Translations under genes and position numbers: made by a program
Notes under the pieces: generated by a model
Databases searched by the model: none
Told to the model about the DNA's origin: nothing
The model's input: only the letters and a program-made list of their open reading frames with translations
Source of the DNA: Candidatus Doudnabacteria bacterium
GTDB taxonomy: Bacteria; Patescibacteriota; Doudnabacteria; UBA920; VMFF01
Reading direction: 5' to 3'
Length of the DNA: 64,000 nt
Assembly: GCA_963840645.1 (NCBI GenBank)
Contig: CAWIZL010000002.1
Location: 81,663-145,662, forward strand
Shown here: one piece after another, positions 2,958 through 60,101 of the stretch
Layout of the letters: each line of letters begins with the position of its first letter
How positions within the stretch are numbered: the stretch's first letter is position 1

Positions 2958-3597
2958 ATGCAACCAATGGCTAATACCGTTGCGACCATCGTTGAAGGAA
3001 TGTCAGTCGAGCAGGGTGGCAAAATGGCTGACCAGCTGTTGACCTACTGCCGCAAGCACGGCTCAGTTTTGCCGAAGAGTACCGTGCAGGAAGTGTTGAA
3101 GCAGGATGGCGAAGTAGTAGCAAAAGAGCAGTTTGAGGTTCTCAGGAAGTACGTTGAGCGGCGGAGCAAGATCATCGTCCGACGTGTCACCATAAACTGG
3201 GATCTGACGCCCGAGCAGATGATCGCAGCAACAAAGCGGAAACAGTACGTCACCGCCGGGGTGCTCGCAACAATGCCTCGTCAGGGGGCGGGTATCGAGA
3301 AAGATGTCGATATGTACTTTTTTCCCGCTGAACGCCAACTCACCATCGACGAGCAGGAAGCAGAAGCTCGCGGCGTACGGACTGGAGCCGTGCTACTACG
3401 GCCAGATCCAGGCAAACATCGACGACTCCTCTTTCGCCGATGAGCGCTGGAATGGTGCTCAGTGGGACAACAAGGATGGGCAAGCTTCGTTCGTCTCCTT
3501 CTACGGGAACGGTGACGGGCGCAGCGTGAGCTGCAACCGCGACGATCACAGGTGGGTTGCCTACGACTGGTTTGCTGGTCGCCTCGCTCGCAAGTAG
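2958..3597 (+). CDS. DGR-1 variable (target) protein; reading frame interrupted once
   Basis: ORF 2958..3443 (frame 0) and ORF 3304..3597 (frame +1) overlap and together encode one protein. The VR lies at the extreme C-terminus (..FVSFYGNGDGRSVSCNRDDHRWVAYDWFAGRLARK). Confidence 0.8.
3493..3595 (+). repeat. VR1 (variable repeat of DGR-1)
   Basis: Ungapped alignment to 3932..4034 (offset 439). 13 mismatches, 11 at TR adenines. The 3' ~30 nt are identical. Confidence 0.9.
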
Positions 3598-3651
3598 CTT
3601 GGGTGCTTGGCATCTCAGCCATTGGTATTCACTTGAGCCTTGGCTCTTTTT

Positions 3652-3695
3652 AATCCTACGTTCCGATTTATCGGAACGTAGGATTCTCCTTTTTT
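3652..3695 (+). terminator. intrinsic terminator after the DGR-1 target gene
   Basis: Perfect inverted repeat AATCCTACGTTCCGAT/ATCGGAACGTAGGATT followed by CTCCTTTTTT. Confidence 0.7.
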
Positions 3696-3718
3696 AAAAA
3701 CTTTGGTACAATATTTTT

Positions 3719-4072
3719 GGTGAACTGTACCTGCGGCTAAGGCTTCAGGTAGCCACCTCGCACTATTGAGTAACCGGTGTGTTGCTGGCTACGGCTCGCG
3801 ACAGGAGTGTTCCTCAATAGCCTTCCAACGAGGATACTTGGTGCAGGCTTCTGGTGGATTTCAATATCCCAAATAAAATACAGCCCCGAGATTTTTCAAG
3901 GGGCAGTGGCGTGGATGGTAGTCTGCACGATGTCACCTTCAACAGGAACGGTGACGAGCGCAACGTGAACTGCAACCGCAACGACAACAGGTGGAATGCC
4001 AACTACTGGTTTGCTGGTCGCCTCGCTCGCAAGTCTCTTCGTTGCTCTCCCTACAGTGGGAGAGTTTGGTTT
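3719..4072 (+). ncRNA. predicted stand-alone TR1 RNA (leader + TR + 3' hairpin)
   Basis: Extended -10 TGgTACAAT at 3704-3712. Conserved leader blocks CCTGCGG..GGCTTCAGG (3730-3749), GATACTTGGTG (3833-3843), TCAAGGGGCAGTGG (3896-3909). TR at 3932-4034. Hairpin CTCTCCC/GGGAGAG at 4045-4064 followed by TTTGGTTT. Confidence 0.5.
3932..4034 (+). repeat. TR1 (template repeat of DGR-1)
   Basis: AAC-rich (reads ..NRNGDERNVNCNRNDNRWNANYWFAGRLARK in the VR frame). Invariant partner of VR1. Confidence 0.9.
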
Positions 4073-4389
4073 CCAAGCTGCTTTTTCCAGCCGCCAATCA
4101 TTTTGCCGACCTCGGCCAAAGGCTCACCCAAGGCGGCAAAACGTTTGTTATCTAGGATTTTCAATTCCCATGCGAGCTGGACAAAGTACTTCAAGGTATC
4201 AACTTTCAGGCTTGCCTTTTGAATGATAGGAGCTTTTTGTTCTCTGGCCGCGTAAGCTGCCAGTAGAATCAGCTCCATCAGCTCAAGGAACAGCAAGTTG
4301 ATTTTCTCTCCCAGTGAGTAGCGTGTCTGCCGTGGAATATGCGGCGCGTAGCTGTACCAAACTTTGTAGGTATCTGAAATTTTTACCAA
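4051..4389 (-). CDS. avd: Avd-like DGR accessory protein (four-helix-bundle / 23S rRNA intervening-sequence protein family)
   Basis: 112-aa ORF starting at TTG, paralogous to 50638..50976 and 58659..59012. The frame stays open upstream through the C tract. The conserved ATG at 4445 is in frame only if the tract is 11 nt. Confidence 0.8.
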   Translation of the reverse strand: MVKISDTYKVWYSYAPHIPRQTRYSLGEKINLLFLELMELILLAAYAAREQKAPIIQKASLKVDTLKYFVQLAWELKILDNKRFAALGEPLAEVGKMIGGWKKQLGNQTLPL

Positions 4390-4422
4390 GACAGACAGGT
4401 TTGCTGTGGATAAATTAGCGTT

Positions 4423-4432
4423 GGGGGGGGGG
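4423..4432. repeat. G10/C10 homopolymer between the avd and RT starts
   Basis: Counted directly; preceded by TGTGGATAA + 9 nt as in the other two cassettes. Confidence 0.9.
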
Positions 4433-4451
4433 TCTTGTAGGCCATTGTTTT

Positions 4452-5453
4452 ATGAAAGCTACTTTTGATAAAAATTACAGCGAAATAATTTCGGTAGAAA
4501 ATCTACTAGCTGCTTGGCAAGAATTTGTCGTCGGCAAAGCCTCAAAGAGAGACGTGCAGAATTTTAGATTGAACTTGCCTGACAACATTCTACAGCTTCA
4601 CGTCGATCTTGCCAATAAATCCTATAAACATGGTGGGTACACAGCATTTGGGATTTCAGACCCAAAGCCGCGGCGAATTCACAAGGCGAGCGTGCGCGAT
4701 CGTGTGCTGCACCATGCAGTCTACAGGCAGCTCTACCCGTTCTTTGATCGACTTTTCATTGCCCACTCTTTTTCTTGCAGAGACGGCAAGGGAACCCACA
4801 GGGCAATGGATGCTCTCAAATCATTTGCGTACCAGGTGAGCGTGAGCCACACAAAAACTTGCTGGGTGCTCAAGTGCGACATCAAAAAGTTTTTTGCGAG
4901 CATTGACCATGGGGTTTTAATTAAAATTTTAGAAGCTCGGATTGCTGATGAAAATATTTTATGGCTGCTCATGGAAATTATCAGTAGCTTTGAGTCTATA
5001 CCCAGCAAAGGTTTGCCGCTCGGCAACTTAACGTCTCAGCTTTTCTGCAATGTGTACATGAATGAGTTTGATCAGTTTGTGAAACGTGAGCTTCGCAGCC
5101 ATTGGTACATTCGGTACGCCGCCGACTTCGTGTTTCTGTCAGAGAGCAGAAAGCAGCTCGAGGAGAAGATACCGCTAGTATCAAACTTCCTTGGCGAAAA
5201 ACTAAAGCTGTCTTTGCACCCAAACAAGGTATCCATACAGTCGTTTGCTTCCGGCGTAGATTTTTTGGGCTGGATTCACTTCCCAAACTATCGAACTTTG
5301 CGCACAGCAACCAAGAGGCGAATGATCAAACAGGTTAAAACTTCGCCAAAACCCCAGACCCTTCAGTCATACTTGGGTATGCTTCAGCATGGGAATGCTT
5401 ATGATTTAAGCCAAGAAGTACTGGATGAGTTCTTACTGTTAGGAAATAAGTAA
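4452..5453 (+). CDS. DGR reverse transcriptase 1 (motif C reads YAAD instead of YADD)
   Basis: RT motifs VLKCDIKKFFASIDH and the DGR-type LPLGNLTSQLFCNVYMN. Motif C is YIRYAADF (codon 5121-5123 is GCC). Confidence 0.9.
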   Translation: MKATFDKNYSEIISVENLLAAWQEFVVGKASKRDVQNFRLNLPDNILQLHVDLANKSYKHGGYTAFGISDPKPRRIHKASVRDRVLHHAVYRQLYPFFDRLFIAHSFSCRDGKGTHRAMDALKSFAYQVSVSHTKTCWVLKCDIKKFFASIDHGVLIKILEARIADENILWLLMEIISSFESIPSKGLPLGNLTSQLFCNVYMNEFDQFVKRELRSHWYIRYAADFVFLSESRKQLEEKIPLVSNFLGEKLKLSLHPNKVSIQSFASGVDFLGWIHFPNYRTLRTATKRRMIKQVKTSPKPQTLQSYLGMLQHGNAYDLSQEVLDEFLLLGNK

Positions 5454-5603: not shown

Positions 5604-13085
<7,482 letters not shown>

Positions 13086-39035: not shown

Positions 39036-39469
39036 GGGTTTGGTCTAGAGGGACAGCGGAATCAAAAATGACCACCCGCTTGCCCCACCTAACCTTTCGG
39101 CTAGGGACCCTTGTAAAGGCTAAGACAAAACGGATGGCCGTCTCTGCTTTACAAGGGATTTTTGCCATGCCCAGAGCAGACCGCTCGTAGGTTTAGGCAA
39201 ACTATTAAATTGTGCCTAAATCATAGTATTTTTGGAGTCTTTGTGCAAACGCGTGGTTTTCTGTAAAACTGGCAGCCCAGGGCACAGCGCAGGTTCGTCC
39301 CTCGGAGTGCCACGGCAGCCCACGTGGAATCTTTGCGCCAAAAGCTTAGAATTGTATGCCCGTCCAAAATCTCTCACTCTGAAGTTGTTTAAAGGCTGGG
39401 CTACCGACACTTGGTTTTAACCGAGTGTAGTTTGGTGCAGGTGTTGCACATTCTTAAAGTTGTAAACCC

Positions 39470-48268: not shown

Positions 48269-48368
48269 GATGACAAATTCCTTTCTCATCATCACCACGA
48301 TTGCTCGCGGCGAATATTAGTATTAAGTTGTTAGAAACATTATACACCAAGAGTCAGAGACTGTATAC

Positions 48369-48397
48369 TTGACAAAGTACAATATATATGATAATAT
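48369..48397 (+). promoter_or_regulatory. sigma70-type promoter now facing the IS element
   Basis: TTGACA (48369-48374), 17 nt, TAATAT (48392-48397). Same hexamers and spacing as the DGR-3 target promoter. Confidence 0.5.
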
Positions 48398-48430
48398 GCG
48401 AACAGGCTCAGTTTGGCACCCGCACCCCCC

Positions 48431-49493
48431 AATCCGAACACTCGGATTTTTTCTTTTCAGCCTTTCTTTGCAGCGCTCCGGCGCTGTTTCCGTTCGCGGT
48501 ACTCGTCCAGCCTCTCTCGCGGCGTCGCGTAGTTCAGAACCTCCATGAATTTGCCCGCCATTTTTTTCTCGATGGCCGCGACCCGACGCACCGAGAGCCT
48601 GGAGATATCTGAGCCCTTCGGCACGTAGACCCTGACCCTGCCGTTCAGGTTCTCCACCTGCGGCTTCTCCCACATGTGGCCGGGTAGCAGAAGTACACGC
48701 GGATGCCGAGCTCGCGGGCGAGCTGCTCGTGGTGCACCCAGAGCAGGTCGTTGTCCGTGGTCATGCTCGACCACTCGGGGTAGCGCGCCTTGATCCGCTT
48801 GGCTGCGGCGAGGACGGCGCCTGCTGACGGCGCCAGGGTGCGCTCGAGGAACGGCGCCCGGGTCGGCATGTCCTCGACGACGAGCAGGGTGCCGCGACCC
48901 GACCTGCCCGAGACGATGAAGTCGCCCTCGGCGTCGCCGACGCGGGGCTGCTGCCCAATGGATTTGGGTCGTTTGTCTATGAACGTGCGGCCGTCAGCGA
49001 GTTTCTTCCGCGCCCCGTTCCTGCGCCGCTTCCTCTTCTTCAGCCTGCTCCGGTGGTGCTCAATCTTCCTGCCGTGCGGCGAGGCGACGTACCGGTACAC
49101 GCTGTTCTTGGACACGTCTGGCAGGTTCGGCTCGTGGGTCCTGATCCTGCCAGACACGGCCTCGGGCGACTGGTCGTCGAGCAGCTCCCGCTCGACGAAC
49201 TCGCGGAGCCCGAAGTTCTCGACGAGCTTCTTGCCCTGGTACCTGGCGTTGTGCCGCCGCACGTACGCCCTGTGGTGCGCCTTGGCCGGGTCGTACGCGC
49301 CGCGCACGCTGTTCCGACCCACCTCGTCGCTGACCGTGGACACCGACCGGTGCATAGCGCGGGCGACCGCGCGCATGGAGTACCCCTTCCCCAACAAAAT
49401 TTTTAGCTCGCCGCGCTCGGCCTTCGTGAGGTGCGAGCGCTGTTTTTTTCATGCCTACATTCTAGCAGCTTTTTCTGGCCGAGTGTTCGGATT
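48431..49493 (-). mobile_element. IS30-family insertion sequence, GC-rich
   Basis: 15-bp terminal inverted repeats AATCCGAACACTCGG (48431-48445) and CCGAGTGTTCGGATT (49479-49493) flank an IS30-like transposase gene. Confidence 0.7.
48457..49452 (-). pseudogene. IS30-family transposase, at least two frame breaks
   Basis: Fragments in ORFs 49060..49452 (start plus an A7 run), 48645..49397 (HTH and DDE core) and 48457..48774 (C-terminus). Confidence 0.8.
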
Positions 49494-49547: not shown

Positions 49548-50156
49548 ATGTCTGAAATCGAAACATTGACCGCATCTGAACCATACGACAGGCAGGTTGA
49601 GAAGTTGACCGAACGGTTGCTCGCAGCAGGGCGCAAATCGGGAATTCCACCATCTCAGTTTCAGGTGGGTCTCGAGTACCCTGGTACTCAGCTCGAAGAT
49701 AAGATTGCGAAGATTATTGTCGAGTTCTCGAAGAGGGCATCTGGAATCTTTACTCTCATGGCCGCAAAGGACACTGGCCTCGTACGAGATGGTTGGACGA
49801 TCGAGAGCGATGACCCGTGCAACGTTGATGTCGCCAAACTCGATTATTCGTATTGCCCCGTAAAGGCAGGCGAAGGTTCCATCAACGGAACCGTCTTGCT
49901 AGAACGTGCGTGCGGCATCGGATGTCTTGGCTTCGGCAAGCTCGTGCTCGACGAGCAGAAAGCGGGAAGGAATGTTATTCCCGTGGAACTGCAAGGGAAG
50001 ATTTATATTCCTCTCACCAGAACCATTCTGCGGAACCGTTACGATGACCGCTACGTGCCGTGCCTCCATTGGAATGGTTCGGAGTGGTGCGTGATCTTCT
50101 TCTGGCTCGACGACAGGTTCAACTCGGATGCTCGTTTGGTTCGCCCCAGCGAGTAG
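49548..50156 (+). CDS. DGR-2 variable (target) protein
   Basis: 202 aa, AGGAGG RBS, no signal peptide. C-terminal VR ..RNRYDDRYVPCLHWNGSEWCVIFFWLDDRFNSDARLVRPSE. Homologous to 57510..58175. Confidence 0.85.
   Translation: MSEIETLTASEPYDRQVEKLTERLLAAGRKSGIPPSQFQVGLEYPGTQLEDKIAKIIVEFSKRASGIFTLMAAKDTGLVRDGWTIESDDPCNVDVAKLDYSYCPVKAGEGSINGTVLLERACGIGCLGFGKLVLDEQKAGRNVIPVELQGKIYIPLTRTILRNRYDDRYVPCLHWNGSEWCVIFFWLDDRFNSDARLVRPSE
50026..50150 (+). repeat. VR2
   Basis: 125-nt ungapped alignment to 50494..50618 (offset 468). 13 mismatches, all at TR adenines. Confidence 0.95.
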
Positions 50157-50278
50157 CACTCAGACACTTGGCTACTCTTTGCTTTTGGGTCTTGTACCCT
50201 TGGCACTTGCGCCCACGGTTTTGCAGCAATGCAAACCCGTTGGTTTTACTTTTCATAAAATTTTCCTATACTACTTTT

Positions 50279-50660
50279 GGACAGAGCGTTCAGCCTGGGT
50301 TACGGCTTCAGGCAGCAAGTCTAGCGTTACCAAAAAATGAGAGTGTCAGGGGGTACGCCTCATGGCAGAAATATTTTTTGGCAATCTTTAAAAAAAGATA
50401 CTCGGTGTGCAGTGTCAGAGAGCTGACGGCTCTGCGTAAAATTCAACCCCGAGAGTATTCAAAGGGTGGTGGCATGGACGACACTGCGCACGTTTCTGCG
50501 GAACCGTAACGATAACCGCAACGTGCCGTACCTCAATTGGAATGGTTCGAAGTGGTACGTGAACTTCAACTGGCTCGACAACAAGTTCAACTCGAATGCT
50601 CGTTTGGTTCGCCCCAGCTAGTATCTCCCACTCCTCCTTAAGCAAGAGGAGTTTGGTTTG
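50279..50660 (+). ncRNA. predicted stand-alone TR2 RNA
   Basis: -10 TATACT at 50267-50272. Leader blocks at 50294-50312, 50397-50407 and 50459-50472. TR at 50494-50618. Hairpin ACTCCTC/GAGGAGT at 50630-50652 followed by TTTGGTTTG. Confidence 0.5.
50494..50618 (+). repeat. TR2
   Basis: Reads ..RNRNDNRNVPYLNWNGSKWYVNFNWLDNKFNSNARLVRPS in the VR frame. Confidence 0.95.
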
Positions 50661-50976
50661 TAAGTTGCCTTTGCCAGCCGCCGAGCATTTTGCCGACCTC
50701 GAGCAGAGGGTTAGATATCGCCGTGTATTTTTTAGTATCAAAACTTTTCAGCTCCCACGCTATTTGCAGAAAGAATTTTAACGTATCCAGTTTCACAGTC
50801 GCTCTCTGAATAATCAAGCTTTTGTGTTCACGTTTTGCAAAAGTTGCGATCAGAATCAACTCAGATGTATCAATGAACAGCAGGTCTATTTTTTCTCCAA
50901 GTGAGTACCGAGAAACCCGCGGAATATTTGGTAGTACGTTATGCCAGATTTTGTAAGCCGCTACTATTTTTTGTAG
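50638..50976 (-). CDS. avd: Avd-like DGR accessory protein 2
   Basis: The ORF track gives only 50638..50859. The frame is open upstream to 51033, and the position of the TTG start of avd1/avd3 is CTA here. The conserved ATG at 51044 is in frame only if the C tract is 11 nt. Confidence 0.7.
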   Translation of the reverse strand, partial: LQKIVAAYKIWHNVLPNIPRVSRYSLGEKIDLLFIDTSELILIATFAKREHKSLIIQRATVKLDTLKFFLQIAWELKSFDTKKYTAISNPLLEVGKMLGGWQRQLTNQTPLA

Positions 50977-51021
50977 AATTGGTAAGTTGCTAGCTGTTTG
51001 TTCTGTGGATAAGTTTCCATT

Positions 51022-51031
51022 GGGGGGGGGG
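51022..51031. repeat. G10/C10 homopolymer
   Basis: Counted directly; TGTGGATAA lies at 51004-51012, 9 nt upstream. Confidence 0.9.
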
Positions 51032-51053
51032 TCTTATAAGTCATGATTTTAAG

Positions 51054-52073
51054 ATGAAGATTACATTTGAAAAGAATTACAGCGAAATTATTTCCCCAGA
51101 CAACCTGTTTGCTGCTTGGCAAGAGTTTACCATTGGCAAGAGATCGAAGAAGGATGTGCAAAATTTCAGCCTGCACCTATCTGACAATATTCTACAGCTT
51201 CACCGCGACCTTGCCAATTTTACTTATAGGCACGGTGGATATTCCGCGTTCAATATCTCTGATCCAAAGCCGCGCAACATTCATAAGGCAAGTATCAGAG
51301 ACAGGGTTTTGCACCATGCAATCTATAGGCAACTCCACCCATTCTTTGACAGGACCTTCATACCAGATTCATTTTCATGCCGCATCAATAAAGGTACGCA
51401 CAGAGCAATGAATCGGTTTCAAGCCTTTGCATGGAAGGTTAGCGGCAACCATACGAAAAATTGTTGGGTGCTAAAGTGTGACATAAAAAAGTTTTTTGGA
51501 AGCATTGACCACGCTGTCTTGCTGAAAATTTTAATCACCCACGTACGAGATGAAAAAATACTTTGGCTTCTCCAAAACCTAATCGAGAGTTTTAATTCTG
51601 GCAGTCCTGGAAAAGGTTTGCCTCTCGGTAACTTAACGTCCCAGTTGTTTTGCAACGTGTACATGAATGAGTTTGATCAATTTGTGAAGCATAGACTCTG
51701 TGCGAAAAATTATATTCGCTACGCTGATGATTTCGTGTTCATGTCTAACGATGAAAGGTGGCTCAGGAACCAGATCCCTAGAATCTCAGAATTTTTAGAG
51801 AACCAGCTACAGCTACATTTGCACCCAAACAAACTATTTGTGAAGAACCTTGCTTCGGGCGTGGATTTTTTAGGTTGGGTACATTTTTCAAAATTTAAGG
51901 TGGTTCGTTCTACAACCCAGAAGCGCATGGTACGAAGGATCTCTGAACAGCCAACGAACGAAACCATACAGTCGTACCTGGGACTACTGAGGCACGGAGA
52001 TGCCTATGATCTTCAGCAAGAAATTTTGAACCTGTATGGCTTGCTTGCGTCGCGCTCGTTTGACCACACATGA
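51054..52073 (+). CDS. DGR reverse transcriptase 2
   Basis: LPLGNLTSQLFCNVYMN, YIRYADDFVF. Confidence 0.9.
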   Translation: MKITFEKNYSEIISPDNLFAAWQEFTIGKRSKKDVQNFSLHLSDNILQLHRDLANFTYRHGGYSAFNISDPKPRNIHKASIRDRVLHHAIYRQLHPFFDRTFIPDSFSCRINKGTHRAMNRFQAFAWKVSGNHTKNCWVLKCDIKKFFGSIDHAVLLKILITHVRDEKILWLLQNLIESFNSGSPGKGLPLGNLTSQLFCNVYMNEFDQFVKHRLCAKNYIRYADDFVFMSNDERWLRNQIPRISEFLENQLQLHLHPNKLFVKNLASGVDFLGWVHFSKFKVVRSTTQKRMVRRISEQPTNETIQSYLGLLRHGDAYDLQQEILNLYGLLASRSFDHT

Positions 52074-57460: not shown

Positions 57461-57509
57461 TGATTTACCCTAAATTGGGTAAATCAAACGAAAAAGGAGG
57501 ATGCTGACA

Positions 57510-58175
57510 ATGTCTACATTGCTCACGTCCAAGAAGAACGCTACCGAGGCTCAATTTCGCCGCGTGCGAAACCTGACCCAGGAAGCAATTGAAGCAGCCA
57601 ACCTCGAACAGGCAGGCTTCACCCACGACGATATGCAGGCTATCCATGCCAACGCCGCACCGTACAAGAAGGAGCTTGCGGTCGCCTTCATCGCTTTTCT
57701 CACTAGCTTCACCAAGAAGCTGCTGGGCATCGCAACCCCCGTCCCCGCCGACAAGACCAGCCTGATTCCAAATGGCTGGACTGTCAAAGTCAGGGAGAGC
57801 GTTCCGCAAGACTTTCCCGAAAGCGACGTTGACCTCTCCAAGCTCGACTACTCGCTGTGCCCAGTTCGGGGCAGCGAGGAGCACATCAACGGCACAACGA
57901 TGATGGCACGGGCGAGAGAAGACAAGGCAATCGGCAGCCTCGGCTTAGCGGCTGTGCTCCTCAAGGCTCAGGACGAGGGTAAGGAAATCTTCCCCGTCGA
58001 ATCTCGCGGCAAGCACTATTTCATCATGCCGCTGACTGAGTTGCAGGGCGTCATCGGTTTCGGCTACGTGGCGTACTTCCGCTGGTCTCGCGGGGAGCGG
58101 CGTTGGGTGCTGGGCTTCGGCTGGCTCGGCCGCAGCTTCGTCCGCGACGGCCGCTTCGTTCGCCGCAGCGAGTAG
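57510..58175 (+). CDS. DGR-3 variable (target) protein
   Basis: Start at the ATG 9 nt after GGAGG (ORF track starts at 57501). C-terminal VR ..GVIGFGYVAYFRWSRGERRWVLGFGWLGRSFVRDGRFVRRSE. Confidence 0.85.
   Translation: MSTLLTSKKNATEAQFRRVRNLTQEAIEAANLEQAGFTHDDMQAIHANAAPYKKELAVAFIAFLTSFTKKLLGIATPVPADKTSLIPNGWTVKVRESVPQDFPESDVDLSKLDYSLCPVRGSEEHINGTTMMARAREDKAIGSLGLAAVLLKAQDEGKEIFPVESRGKHYFIMPLTELQGVIGFGYVAYFRWSRGERRWVLGFGWLGRSFVRDGRFVRRSE
58041..58175 (+). repeat. VR3
   Basis: 135-nt ungapped alignment to 58528..58662 (offset 487). 25 mismatches, 24 at TR adenines. Confidence 0.95.
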
Positions 58176-58306
58176 CTCTCGGACACTTGTCACCTTGGTG
58201 CTTTCGGGTTTTGAACCCTTGGCACTGCGCTCTATCCTCACACCTCAGGCTTCGGTCTCTGGTGTGGGGATTTCTTTTTCGAAATTTCTTCTGGTACAAT
58301 TCTTTA

Positions 58307-58696
58307 GGATAGATGCTGCGCCTGCGGTCACGGCTTCATGCAATCTCTCTAGCGATTACTAAAAATCAGGGTATCGGCGGCTACGGTTTCCGATAGAGCA
58401 TTCTTTAGTAACTCTTCAAAAGAAGATACTCGGTGCGAGGTGTTGGCGAGGTTTAATTCCTCCTAACAAAAAGATACAGCTCCAAGAGCACTCAAGGGGC
58501 AGTGGACAGGATGACACCCCGCATATTTTGCAGGACGACAACGGTAACGGCAACGTGGCGTACTTCAACTGGTCTAACGAGAAGCAGCGTTGGGTGCTGG
58601 ACTTCAACTGGCTCGACAACAACTTCAACCGCAACGACCGCTTCGTTCGCCGCAGCGACTAGCTTCTCACTCCTACTTCGGTGGGAGTTTCTTTTG
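58307..58696 (+). ncRNA. predicted stand-alone TR3 RNA
   Basis: Extended -10 TGgTACAAT at 58292-58300. Leader blocks at 58321-58340, 58425-58435 and 58492-58505. TR at 58528-58662. Hairpin ACTCCTAC-TTCG-GTGGGAGT at 58669-58688 followed by TTCTTTTG. Confidence 0.5.
58528..58662 (+). repeat. TR3
   Basis: Reads ..DNGNGNVAYFNWSNEKQRWVLDFNWLDNNFNRNDRFVRRSD in the VR frame. Confidence 0.95.
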
Positions 58697-59012
58697 CGAG
58701 CTGTCTCTGCCAGCCGCCGAGCATTTTTCCCGCTTCTACCAGTGAACTCGAAATTTGCACATACTGCTTATTATCAAGCACCTTTAGCTCCCAAGCCATT
58801 TGCAAAAAATATTTCAGGGTGTCCAGTTTAATGCTGGCCTTTTGAACAATCGGCAGCTTGGTTGCCTTGGCGGCAAATCCTGCCGTGAGAATCAGCTCGA
58901 TGACATCTGTGAACAGTTGGCCTATCTTTTCTCCCAGCGAGTGCTTCGACAGCCGTGGGATGTGCGGCAGCAGGCTGTGCCAGAACTTGTAAGCACCGCC
59001 AACCTCTTGCAA
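58659..59012 (-). CDS. avd: Avd-like DGR accessory protein 3
   Basis: 117-aa ORF from TTG. The frame is open upstream through the C12 tract. The ATGs at 59064 and 59073 are in frame only if the tract is 11 nt. Confidence 0.8.
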   Translation of the reverse strand: MQEVGGAYKFWHSLLPHIPRLSKHSLGEKIGQLFTDVIELILTAGFAAKATKLPIVQKASIKLDTLKYFLQMAWELKVLDNKQYVQISSSLVEAGKMLGGWQRQLAKETPTEVGVRS

Positions 59013-59045
59013 GACAGGGAGGTTGGCTGTGGATAAGTTAGCGTT

Positions 59046-59057
59046 GGGGGGGGGGGG
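59046..59057. repeat. G12/C12 homopolymer
   Basis: Counted directly; TGTGGATAA lies at 59028-59036, 9 nt upstream. Confidence 0.9.
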
Positions 59058-59084
59058 TCTCCATATAAAGCATAAAATTTAAGA

Positions 59085-60101
59085 ATGAAAATTAAATTTG
59101 AAAAAAATTACGAGAGCATCATCTCACTTGAGAATCTATTTTTAGCCTGGCAGGAATTTATTGTGGGCAAAAGAAAGAAACGTGATGTCCAGCAGTTCAG
59201 TTTAAGTTTAACCGATAACCTTGTCCAGCTCAACGCCGAACTCACAGCTCGTTCCTACAAGCACGGCGGCTACAAGGCCTTTAACATTTCTGACCCAAAG
59301 CCACGCAACATACACAAGGCGACTGTTCGAGACAGGGTGCTGCACCATGCTATCTACAGGCAGCTGTACCCTTTCTTTGACCGAACCTTCATTGCCGATT
59401 CATTTTCTTGTCGTTTGGGCAAGGGAGTTCATAAGGCGTTGGGTCGGTTCGAGAGCTTTGCGTTGCAAGTGAGCAGAAACAACACCCGCACTGCTTGGAT
59501 TTTGAAAATGGACGTGAGGAGATTCTTTGCGAGCATTGACCACGAAATCTTGCTAGGCATCTTAGCCGCTCACATACCCGACCAAGACATTCTCTGGCTC
59601 TTGGGGCAGATTATAGAGAGCTTCTCATCTAAACCTGATACAGGGTTGCCCCTCGGCAACTTAACCTCGCAGCTGTTCTGCAACGTGTACCTGAATGAGT
59701 TTGACCAGTTCGTGAAGCACAAGCTCAAGGGTAAATATTACATTCGCTATGCCGACGACCTCGTTCTCTTTTCCGATGACAGGGAGTGGCTGTTGGGTCG
59801 GGTGAGCCTGGTATCTGATTTCTTGGAGCAGCGGCTTTGCCTGTCCTTGCATCCTGACAAACTTTGCTTGAAGAGCCTATCGTCAGGCATGGACTTCTTG
59901 GGATGGGTAAATTTTCCCCACCATCGGGTTCTGCGAACCACAACGCAAAGGCGGGCAATGAAAAGAGTACAGGCTCACCCCACCGATGACACCGTGCAGT
60001 CCTATTTAGGACTGTCAGTCCACGGCAACGCCTTTGATTTTAAGCAGCGAATTTTGAACTGGTATGGGTTGATTTCAGAGAAAGGATATTATAAGAAGTG
60101 A
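59085..60101 (+). CDS. DGR reverse transcriptase 3
   Basis: LPLGNLTSQLFCNVYLN, YIRYADDLVL. Confidence 0.9.
   Translation: MKIKFEKNYESIISLENLFLAWQEFIVGKRKKRDVQQFSLSLTDNLVQLNAELTARSYKHGGYKAFNISDPKPRNIHKATVRDRVLHHAIYRQLYPFFDRTFIADSFSCRLGKGVHKALGRFESFALQVSRNNTRTAWILKMDVRRFFASIDHEILLGILAAHIPDQDILWLLGQIIESFSSKPDTGLPLGNLTSQLFCNVYLNEFDQFVKHKLKGKYYIRYADDLVLFSDDREWLLGRVSLVSDFLEQRLCLSLHPDKLCLKSLSSGMDFLGWVNFPHHRVLRTTTQRRAMKRVQAHPTDDTVQSYLGLSVHGNAFDFKQRILNWYGLISEKGYYKK

Follow-up and report, generated by a model that had tools for sequence, protein, structure and literature searches.

A conserved 5' leader pairs with both flanks of the template repeat in three diversity-generating retroelements of a Doudnabacteria genome and might carry their priming and stop strands

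Where might a diversity-generating retroelement (DGR) carry the strands that prime and stop the copying of its template repeat (TR) when the accessory gene avd faces the TR from the opposite strand? The question is raised by a 64,000-nt stretch of DNA from Candidatus Doudnabacteria bacterium (GCA_963840645.1, contig CAWIZL010000002.1, positions 81,663-145,662 of the forward strand), hereafter the window, which holds three DGR cassettes (DGR1, DGR2, and DGR3). To our knowledge, a single phage element, whose RNA is arranged the opposite way, has supplied all that is understood mechanistically about DGR priming. A previous reading of the window, made from the sequence only, had proposed that the TR is an RNA gene with its own promoter, lying between the target gene and avd, and that the elements for recognition and priming by the reverse transcriptase (RT) might reside in a conserved 5' leader or in a 3' hairpin. 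The order given there is indeed found in every cassette: target(+), promoter-like element and leader(+), TR(+), hairpin with a U-rich tract, avd(-), a G-tract, and RT(+). The leader forms a base-paired architecture with two long-range helices, one to each flank of the TR, and these helices bracket the stretch of information transfer. Priming and stop elements thus probably lie upstream of the TR, unlike in the Bordetella-phage model. We assign a probability of roughly 0.6 to the whole model, a DGR of the published architecture B3 with a dedicated, structured TR RNA and with leader-borne priming and stop strands.

The leader is not confined to the window. RT1 was scanned against one genome per species, giving more than 562 relatives, of which we used the best 80; these come nearly all from metagenome-assembled genomes of Patescibacteria and share 57-66% RT identity. 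With the three window leaders as the seed of an iterated nhmmer profile, the leader element was found in 74 of the 80 loci, always on the RT strand, with its end lying ~560 nt 5' of the RT start. Of the six loci without it, five are on contigs that break off less than ~200 nt before the RT; L023 (CAJWTE010000008.1) alone among the related loci combines ~1.1 kb of sequence upstream of the RT with no leader match. The sequence-only reading had described three colinear leader blocks at fixed spacing and had named their absence from homologous cassettes as grounds for giving up the idea. The blocks stand at that spacing in all three cassettes, and the conservation on which the idea depended is what the relatives display.

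The ends of the presumed RNA gene are conserved as well. The extended -10 element TGGTACAAT described for DGR1 and DGR3 and the TATACT described for DGR2 all lie where they had been placed (Table 1), and at the 5' end of the conserved block TAnnnT occupies the same alignment column in 56 of 57 loci, with TGnTAnnnT in 46 of 57. Downstream, a hairpin with a T-run follows the TR in each cassette as described, and in 48 of 57 loci a similar hairpin and U-run occur behind the TR, where they would be expected. A GC-rich stem-loop followed directly by a U-run is the hallmark of a Rho-independent terminator, as which these 3' hairpins are predicted to act. The additional strong terminator described after the DGR1 target is also present (3652-3695, + strand; hairpin 3652-3685 with a 15-bp stem, and a T-run). 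The proposal that the TR unit has its own promoter is thereby borne out to the extent of a conserved promoter-like element at its 5' side and a terminator-like 3' end. From these sequence signals, the TR RNA would be an independent transcript of ~355, 382, and 390 nt in DGR1, DGR2, and DGR3, respectively, with read-through into the RT gene possible. The hairpin was also said to overlap the avd stop codon; it does so in DGR1 and DGR2, but in DGR3 the stop codon (58659-58661) sits 8 nt upstream of the hairpin. As a separate observation, the final codons of avd (KQNSP, KETPP, NQT(L/P)..) and the hairpin 3' arm with the U-tract are reverse complements of each other at 4051-4075, 50638-50661, and 58659-58697 and in related loci, so that the Avd C-terminal tail and the 3' element of the RNA constrain each other.

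Alignments were built with nhmmer and MAFFT. For the 57 leaders of alignment A2, RNAalifold gives 49 base pairs over ~215 nt, 43 of them with compensatory changes, and a covariation term of -16.5 kcal/mol. The predicted elements are P1, P2, P4, P5, and a 12-bp long-range helix. P1 and P2 are long hairpins with GGYUACGGYU apices, P5 is a covarying 4-bp stem around a conserved loop, and in the long-range helix GUGCnnnnnnnU, which stands directly 3' of the invariant GAUACUUG, pairs with the segment just before the TR. Because G-U pairs are frequent, the structure is specific to the + strand. A pseudoknot between GAUACU and the P5 loop AGUAUU was considered and rejected by eye in A2, where changes in the loop (AGCAC, AGCAU) are not compensated in the constant GAUACU.

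The core of the architecture is a contiguous leader strand of ~27 nt, ...AAAUGAAGAUACUUG|GUGCnnnnnnnU, which we call the splint. Its 3' half forms helix 2 with the 12 nt just upstream of the TR, and its 5' half forms helix 1 with ~15 nt that span the TR 3' end and the sequence immediately beyond it; with the two helices side by side, the TR is left as a loop between them. Helix 1 can be recognized by eye, since the 15 nt before GUGC (consensus AAAUGAAGAUACUUG) complement the stretch from the TR end to the hairpin (consensus CAACUCUCUUCAUUU), as CAACGAGGAUACUUG/CAAGUCUCUUCGUUG in DGR1 and AGAAGAUACUCG/CGACUAGCUUCU in DGR3. Its partners co-vary among relatives, for example AUACA/UGUAU (L039), GUGAG/CUCAC (L017), and AUAACA/UGUUAU (L063).

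Pairing was counted for the named structures in alignment A3 (48 loci). Helix 2 is paired in 97.0% of cells, and P4 and P5 in 97.4% each; helix 1 is paired in 74.2%, with two positions systematically unpaired and 13 of its 15 pairs changed on both sides. For all named structures, none of 500 shuffles reached the observed values, and sliding the partner strand reduced pairing from 87% to 37-49%. For helix 1 alone, again 0 of 500 shuffles reached the observed value on any of five measures, and slid registers were 39-49% paired. Comparing the strands across the 48 loci, the duplex energy of helix 1 was -7.24 kcal/mol for cognate pairs vs -4.79 ± 0.27 kcal/mol for non-cognate pairs (0 of 20,000 permutations); repeating the test on the 20 nt before the hairpin gave z = -9.1. 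The same comparison gave z = -22 for helix 2 and z = 0.3 for an unrelated-strand control. The covariation signal of helix 1 comes from its distal 11 nt. A small hairpin, P3 (CUUC-A6U-GAAG), competes with helix 1 and might be an alternative state; it is weakly supported (z = -2.3).

Evidence independent of covariation comes from the limits of the homology between the TR and the variable repeat (VR), which an ungapped, adenine-tolerant search located in every one of the 48 loci. Measured from the 3' strand of helix 2, TR-VR homology starts 3.5 nt downstream (median; gap of -2 to +11 nt in 46 of 48 loci), and at its other end it reaches 3 nt (median) into the helix 1 strand on the template side (overlap of 0-5 nt in 43 of 48). 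This bracketing ties the helices to the limits of information transfer. The non-adenine TR/VR differences of the window at the 3' end of the homology (4035-4036, 50619, and 58659) lie inside helix 1, where they would stay uncopied if synthesis starts, as in the model, at the helix 1 5' edge.

What such a pair of helices might do is suggested by the ribonucleoprotein of the Bordetella-phage (BPP-1) DGR. Its RNA consists of the avd 3' end, the TR, and a 140-nt spacer, Sp (Handa et al. 2018; 10.1101/2023.10.23.563531; Rfam RT-10). In the structure (bioRxiv 10.1101/2023.10.23.563531), the TR 3' end is bound by Sp47-56, of which A56 acts as primer; after a gap of two nucleotides, Sp59-70 pairs with the avd segment immediately upstream of the TR through 11 canonical bp to form the stop of cis-primed reverse transcription (cPRT), so that the TR is looped out between the template:primer and stop duplexes. 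Along Sp follow an Avd-binding UNCG stem-loop, the primer strand, the stop strand, a small stem-loop, adenosines, a single-stranded thumb ring, and an RT-binding stem-loop (10.1101/2023.10.23.563531). In the window too, a single strand pairs side by side with the TR 3' end and a segment upstream of the TR, the stop duplex having ~12 bp in both systems, and the elements of the leader of the candidate phyla radiation (CPR) elements come in the order of Sp: the P1/P2 UACG hairpins, the helix 1 strand, the helix 2 strand, P4, a conserved A-rich single strand C(G/A)AAUA...GAUACA, and P5. The apex of the BPP-1 Avd-binding stem-loop, GCUACGGCU in the BPP-1 sequence, is identical to that of the leader P2. 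Seen from P2, its apical 9-10 nt GGCUACGGCU (3784-3797, 58376-58389) equal the BPP-1 apex GCCAACGCUACGGCUUGGC and also occur in the RT-9 consensus; the common apex suggests, as far as sequence can tell, a shared Avd-binding module.

There are also differences from BPP-1. The priming and stop strands and the protein-binding stem-loops of the phage RNA are found 3' of the TR, in a transcript shared with brt, whereas the partner strands and the whole module of the CPR RNA are in the 5' leader. The CPR avd is convergent and lies outside the RNA, the leader has two UACG hairpins and not one, and helix 1 falls nearly entirely outside the TR-VR homology (~3 nt overlap), whereas the BPP-1 duplex uses TR118-129 of a 134-nt TR. 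Beyond the apex there is no detectable sequence homology to Sp. From this comparison, the CPR RNA resembles a circularly permuted form of the canonical DGR RNA with the module moved 5' of the TR, as if a circle made by joining the Sp 3' end to the upstream stop strand had been cut where the TR meets Sp.

A mechanism can be sketched on these grounds. The non-coding TR RNA of ~350-390 nt would start ~7 nt after the extended -10 element and would end at the hairpin and U-tract within the 3' end of the convergent avd. The RT-Avd complex would bind it, with Avd presumably on P1/P2, and cDNA synthesis would be primed in cis from the leader nucleotide at the junction of helices 1 and 2 (~G3840/G3841 in DGR1). 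The RT would copy the TR from its last nucleotides and halt at helix 2, and the adenine-mutagenised cDNA would then replace the VR. For DGR1, a cDNA start at ~4029 and a stop at ~3929-3931 are predicted. Of the earlier suggestion that the 5' leader holds the recognition and priming elements, the part that stands is that the partner strands of both TR flanks are there; that priming starts from the leader we infer by analogy with the phage RNA. Whether CPR DGRs in general use a naturally permuted RNA, a self-contained ~370-nt molecule that has a promoter and a terminator to itself and is cis-primed from its leader, with the whole Sp-equivalent (Avd-binding-like UACG hairpins, primer strand, cPRT-stop strand, and RT-binding elements) 5' of the TR, appears to us evenly poised.

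Several points weigh against this interpretation. Both the 5' start and the 3' end of the RNA are predictions. The proximal part of helix 1, closest to where priming is proposed (AUACUUG with CAAC...), varies too little for covariation to show (z = -1.2) and includes two systematic mismatches. RNAalifold places no unpaired linker between the helices, where the phage RNA has two nucleotides. In single-sequence minimum free energy (MFE) folding, neither DGR2 nor DGR3 shows helix 1. Conservation of the stem sequence in the 3' hairpin hints at a possible role beyond termination. The likeness to Sp is topological; the matches listed for the DGR1 and DGR3 leaders at E up to 10 include no RT-10. Single-sequence MFE folds match the model in part and were not used as evidence: for full-length DGR1, the MFE structure contains helix 1 and the centroid contains helices 1 and 2 (energy z = -3.65), whereas DGR2 gives helix 2 and DGR3 gives neither helix.

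The alternative that survives best, although we consider it unlikely, is that the leader serves only as a scaffold for protein binding and folding that clamps the TR, while the primer is either the 3'-OH of the terminated or nicked RNA or nicked target DNA. Covariation demonstrates pairing and not priming, and priming by the 3'-OH of a nicked template RNA was proposed in an earlier study of the phage element (PMC5703328). The A-rich part of the splint is also complementary to the U-tract. This complementarity is generic, however, and pairing of the leader A-run with the 3' U-tract was rejected because the hairpin 3' arm and U-tract show no covariation with the leader (z = -0.4). The geometry of the junction, a primer-like strand with a stop strand immediately after it and the TR 3' end abutting, matches the cis-priming ribonucleoprotein, and the close coincidence (0-5 nt in 43 of 48 loci) of the homology end with the helix 1 edge also counts against a mere scaffold.

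Quite improbable, in our judgement, is a canonical-like operon, in which the TR promoter would drive a long RNA through the TR, the antisense strand of avd, and the RT; the strands for priming and stopping would then follow the TR, and the 3' hairpin would be just a stem-loop for Avd binding or an attenuator that leaks. By eye, no RT promoter is conserved among the three window cassettes, and the hairpin stem CUCUCCC/GGGAGAG is conserved beyond the needs of a terminator. Handa et al. (10.1101/2023.10.23.563531) described putative Avd-binding stem-loops close behind the TR, together with duplexes between upstream and downstream segments, in 207 of 278 DGRs, CPR members being among the taxa named; their survey folded 40 nt upstream and 100 nt downstream of the TR. 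Yet the 12 nt upstream of the TR are already engaged by the leader with massive covariation, and the search for partner strands downstream of the TR, in antisense avd, gave no signal: in the cognate vs non-cognate comparison, the two TR flanks against the 100 nt downstream yielded z = -0.7 and 0.0. A U-tract stands directly 3' of the hairpin in most loci. Read-through into the RT would fit leader-borne priming too, as it leaves the partner strands in place. That the conservation is trivial, reflecting recent cassette duplicates, a riboswitch or other unrelated cis-regulatory RNA, or the remnant of a coding sequence, is hardly credible: the window leaders are ~74% identical over the aligned cassette stretch, but the element lies beside diverged RTs of many Patescibacteria lineages and no + strand gene follows it, and its presence in 74 loci together with the compensatory changes refutes the idea.

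The leader was also compared with described RNA families. For it, no Rfam family reached its gathering score in the window or in 18 related loci, and we define the leader as an RNA family of ~215 nt that no Rfam model captures at threshold. Weinberg et al. 2017 (PMC5737381) described RT-1 to RT-19 as structured motifs near RT genes, with RT-10 corresponding to the spacer of BPP-1, and speculated about a role of further RT motifs in DGRs. RT-16 (RF03019) scored 24.6 bits (gathering 50; E = 0.12-0.28) at 3842-3926, the domain closed by helix 2, where its consensus resembles the window in the closing helix, AUAAAAUACAG, a P5-like stem, and GGUG. RT-9 (RF03080) scored 19.3 bits (gathering 46.1; E = 1.6) at 58370-58479, over P2 of DGR3, which its hairpin GguUAcGgcUu matches. 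With these sub-threshold scores, and with neither match reproduced at E up to 5 in 12 other loci, membership in either family was rejected. Both are orphan motifs with no function assigned to them, for which no link to TR flanks is described (PMC5737381). Retron msr-msd RNA is likewise a stand-alone structured non-coding RNA beside its RT and provides both primer (an internal 2'-OH) and template; retrons differ in having no TR/VR pair, Avd, or adenine mutagenesis, and the window RT has the DGR-type LGxxxSQ.

The gene order, in contrast to the leader, is already catalogued. The sequence-only reading had regarded the layout as non-canonical and undescribed, which it is not: TR-(avd)-RT is architecture B3 of CPR/DPANN DGRs (Wu et al. 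2018, NAR 46:11, PMC5758913, there citing Paul et al. 2017) and accounts for 90% of their CPR DGR set. The same authors noted that DGR components on different strands require separate transcription units (PMC5758913). A TR upstream of a reverse-strand avd, followed by an RT on the TR strand, is found in all three cassettes, and in 72 of the best 80 relatives the leader, TR, reverse-strand avd, and RT could be placed in that order; the layout is therefore the norm for the clade and not an oddity of the window genome. The cassettes resemble published B3 DGRs in gene order, orientations, a bAvd-type accessory protein, one adjacent target with a C-terminal VR, and a Patescibacteria host. We found no difference in layout; Wu et al. 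2018 gives no leader RNA, promoter, or pairing scheme, and what goes beyond the published B3 description is the conserved structured leader that pairs with both TR flanks. Text searches of the literature returned no description of a leader-borne or permuted DGR RNA, which does not fully exclude an earlier one.

CPR and DPANN organisms carry a large share of the known DGRs, and a review places ~40% of distinct bacterial DGRs in CPR. For the architecture that dominates in CPR, our analysis offers a concrete RNA model that names the strands pairing with the TR flanks. The logic of a template:primer duplex and a stop duplex has apparently been kept despite the permutation, which argues that this logic is the conserved core of DGR reverse transcription. 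If the model is right, the downstream side of the TR, where published work has sought the Sp elements of B3-type DGRs, was the wrong one. The model suggests that one short non-coding RNA gene carries all that is needed in cis, which would be useful for reconstituting and engineering CPR DGRs and would provide a compact template RNA, independent of the avd and RT genes, to work with.

Table 1. Positions of the DGR features in the window, with the BPP-1 Avd-binding apex (locus L081) for comparison
Feature	Position	Strand	Remarks
DGR1 target	2958-3597	+	split into 2958-3443 / 3304-3597 in the assembly; VR 3493-3595
DGR1 TR RNA extended -10, TGGTACAAT	3704-3712	+	predicted start ~3719-3721
DGR1 P1	3729-3750	+	apex GGCUAAGGCU
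DGR1 P2	3768-3814	+	long, internal loops, UACG loop, apex GGCUACGGCU
DGR1 helix 1 leader strand, CAACGAGGAUACUUG	3826-3840	+	pairs with 4030-4044; candidate primer strand
DGR1 helix 2 5' strand, GUGCAGGCUUCU	3841-3852	+	pairs with 3917-3928; candidate stop strand
DGR1 P4	3856-3869	+	followed by conserved single strand CAAAUAAAAUACA
DGR1 P5	3883-3904	+	covarying 4-bp stem, conserved loop; then conserved GUGG 3907-3910
DGR1 helix 2 3' strand	3917-3928	+	ends 3 nt before the TR
DGR1 TR	3932-4034	+	homologous to VR 3493-3595
DGR1 helix 1 3' strand, CAAGUCUCUUCGUUG	4030-4044	+	shares 5 nt with the TR 3' end; candidate template strand of the priming duplex
DGR1 3' hairpin	4044-4065, then TTTGGTTT (to 4074)	+	CUCUCCC/GGGAGAG; contains avd stop 4051-4053
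DGR1 avd	4051-4446	-	bAvd; stop 4051-4053; first listed in-frame start TTG 4389
DGR1 RT	4452-5453	+	RVT_1; contains LGNLTSQ
DGR2 target	49548-50156	+	VR 50026-50155
DGR2 promoter and leader	50267-50493	+	-10 TATACT 50267-50272
DGR2 P1	50292-50313	+	
DGR2 P2	50332-50378	+	
DGR2 helix 1 strand	50396-50404	+	
DGR2 helix 2 strands	50405-50416, 50480-50491	+	
DGR2 P4	50420-50432	+	
DGR2 P5	50446-50467	+	
DGR2 TR	50494-50623	+	homologous to VR 50026-50155
DGR2 helix 1 partner, AGUAUCU	50620-50626, plus C50618	+	
DGR2 3' hairpin	50630-50652, then TTGGTTTGT (to 50661)	+	over avd stop 50638-50640
DGR2 avd	50638-51033	-	bAvd; stop codon 50638-50640
DGR2 RT	51054-52073	+	RVT_1
DGR3 target	57501-58175	+	VR 58041-58177
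DGR3 extended -10 and leader	58292-58527	+	-10 58292-58300
DGR3 P1	58320-58341	+	
DGR3 P2	58360-58406	+	
DGR3 helix 1 strand	58421-58432	+	
DGR3 helix 2 strands	58433-58444, 58513-58524	+	
DGR3 P4	58448-58461	+	
DGR3 P5	58479-58500	+	
DGR3 TR	58528-58664	+	homologous to VR 58041-58177
DGR3 helix 1 partner, CGACUAGCUUCU	58656-58667	+	
DGR3 3' hairpin	58669-58688, then TTCTTTTG (to 58696)	+	UUCG loop; inside last avd codons
DGR3 avd	58659-59078	-	bAvd; stop codon 58659-58661
DGR3 RT	59085-60101	+	RVT_1
BPP-1 Avd-binding apex	L081 2859-2877	-	

By their RT, TR/VR, and Avd, the three cassettes are ordinary CPR-type DGRs. The RTs match RVT_1 with E-values of 1e-22 to 1e-25, the LGNLTSQ motif read in the RT sequences is of the DGR type (I/L)GxxxSQ, and the best relatives of the window RTs are those of Patescibacteria loci sharing the avd-TR-VR layout. 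All three minus-strand open reading frames match bAvd PF22296 (50.9-56.5 bits, cut-off 40). Each TR has a single VR within the window, and the TR/VR mismatches are located at TR adenines in 11 of 15 (DGR1), 13 of 14 (DGR2), and 24 of 25 (DGR3) cases. The targets of the three cassettes have no Pfam match.

The window frames and tract lengths are to be read with care since the assembly seems to carry indel errors: rpoB (5604-8649) is broken near 6620 into two overlapping open reading frames by one extra non-homopolymer base, and the DGR1 target is split too (Table 1). Between the divergent avd and RT starts lies a homopolymeric G tract, G10 at 4423-4432 (DGR1), G10 at 51022-51031 (DGR2), and G12 at 59046-59057 (DGR3), and a tract of 8-17 nt stands between the two start codons in 66 of 72 related loci, typically 7-20 nt 5' of the RT ATG. 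In DGR1, the avd ATG at 4443-4445 is out of frame relative to the 10-C tract; an ATG-started avd frame in the window (M..K/E-T-P-P-P-N) would require 11 C, and 10, 10, and 12 are seen. The tract could be a ribosome-binding or 5'-untranslated element of the RT, a slippage-prone switch, or, in the window, a homopolymer assembly error. A coding poly-proline stretch or a phase switch was rejected because the lengths of 8-17 show no mod-3 preference, most loci have no in-frame ATG before the tract, and the tract lengths in the window are unreliable given the indels.

Three further observations concern the surroundings of the cassettes. A frameshifted transposase-like remnant (HTH_38), G+C-rich by eye, occupies 48323-49452 (-) directly upstream of the DGR2 target, and a LOOT RNA (RF03000) is found at 39070-39199 (-) with 53.4 bits against a gathering score of 46.4. 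An inverted repeat flanking the site at which mutagenic homing is initiated (IMH) is known to help retrohoming in the Bordetella and Legionella DGRs. Directly 3' of the target stop, a conserved block of ~50 nt (50157-50207 and 58176-58226, weaker at 3598-3650) holds a small hairpin, GGGTCTTGTACCC / GGGTTTTGAACCC, and is a candidate for such an IMH-flanking inverted repeat.

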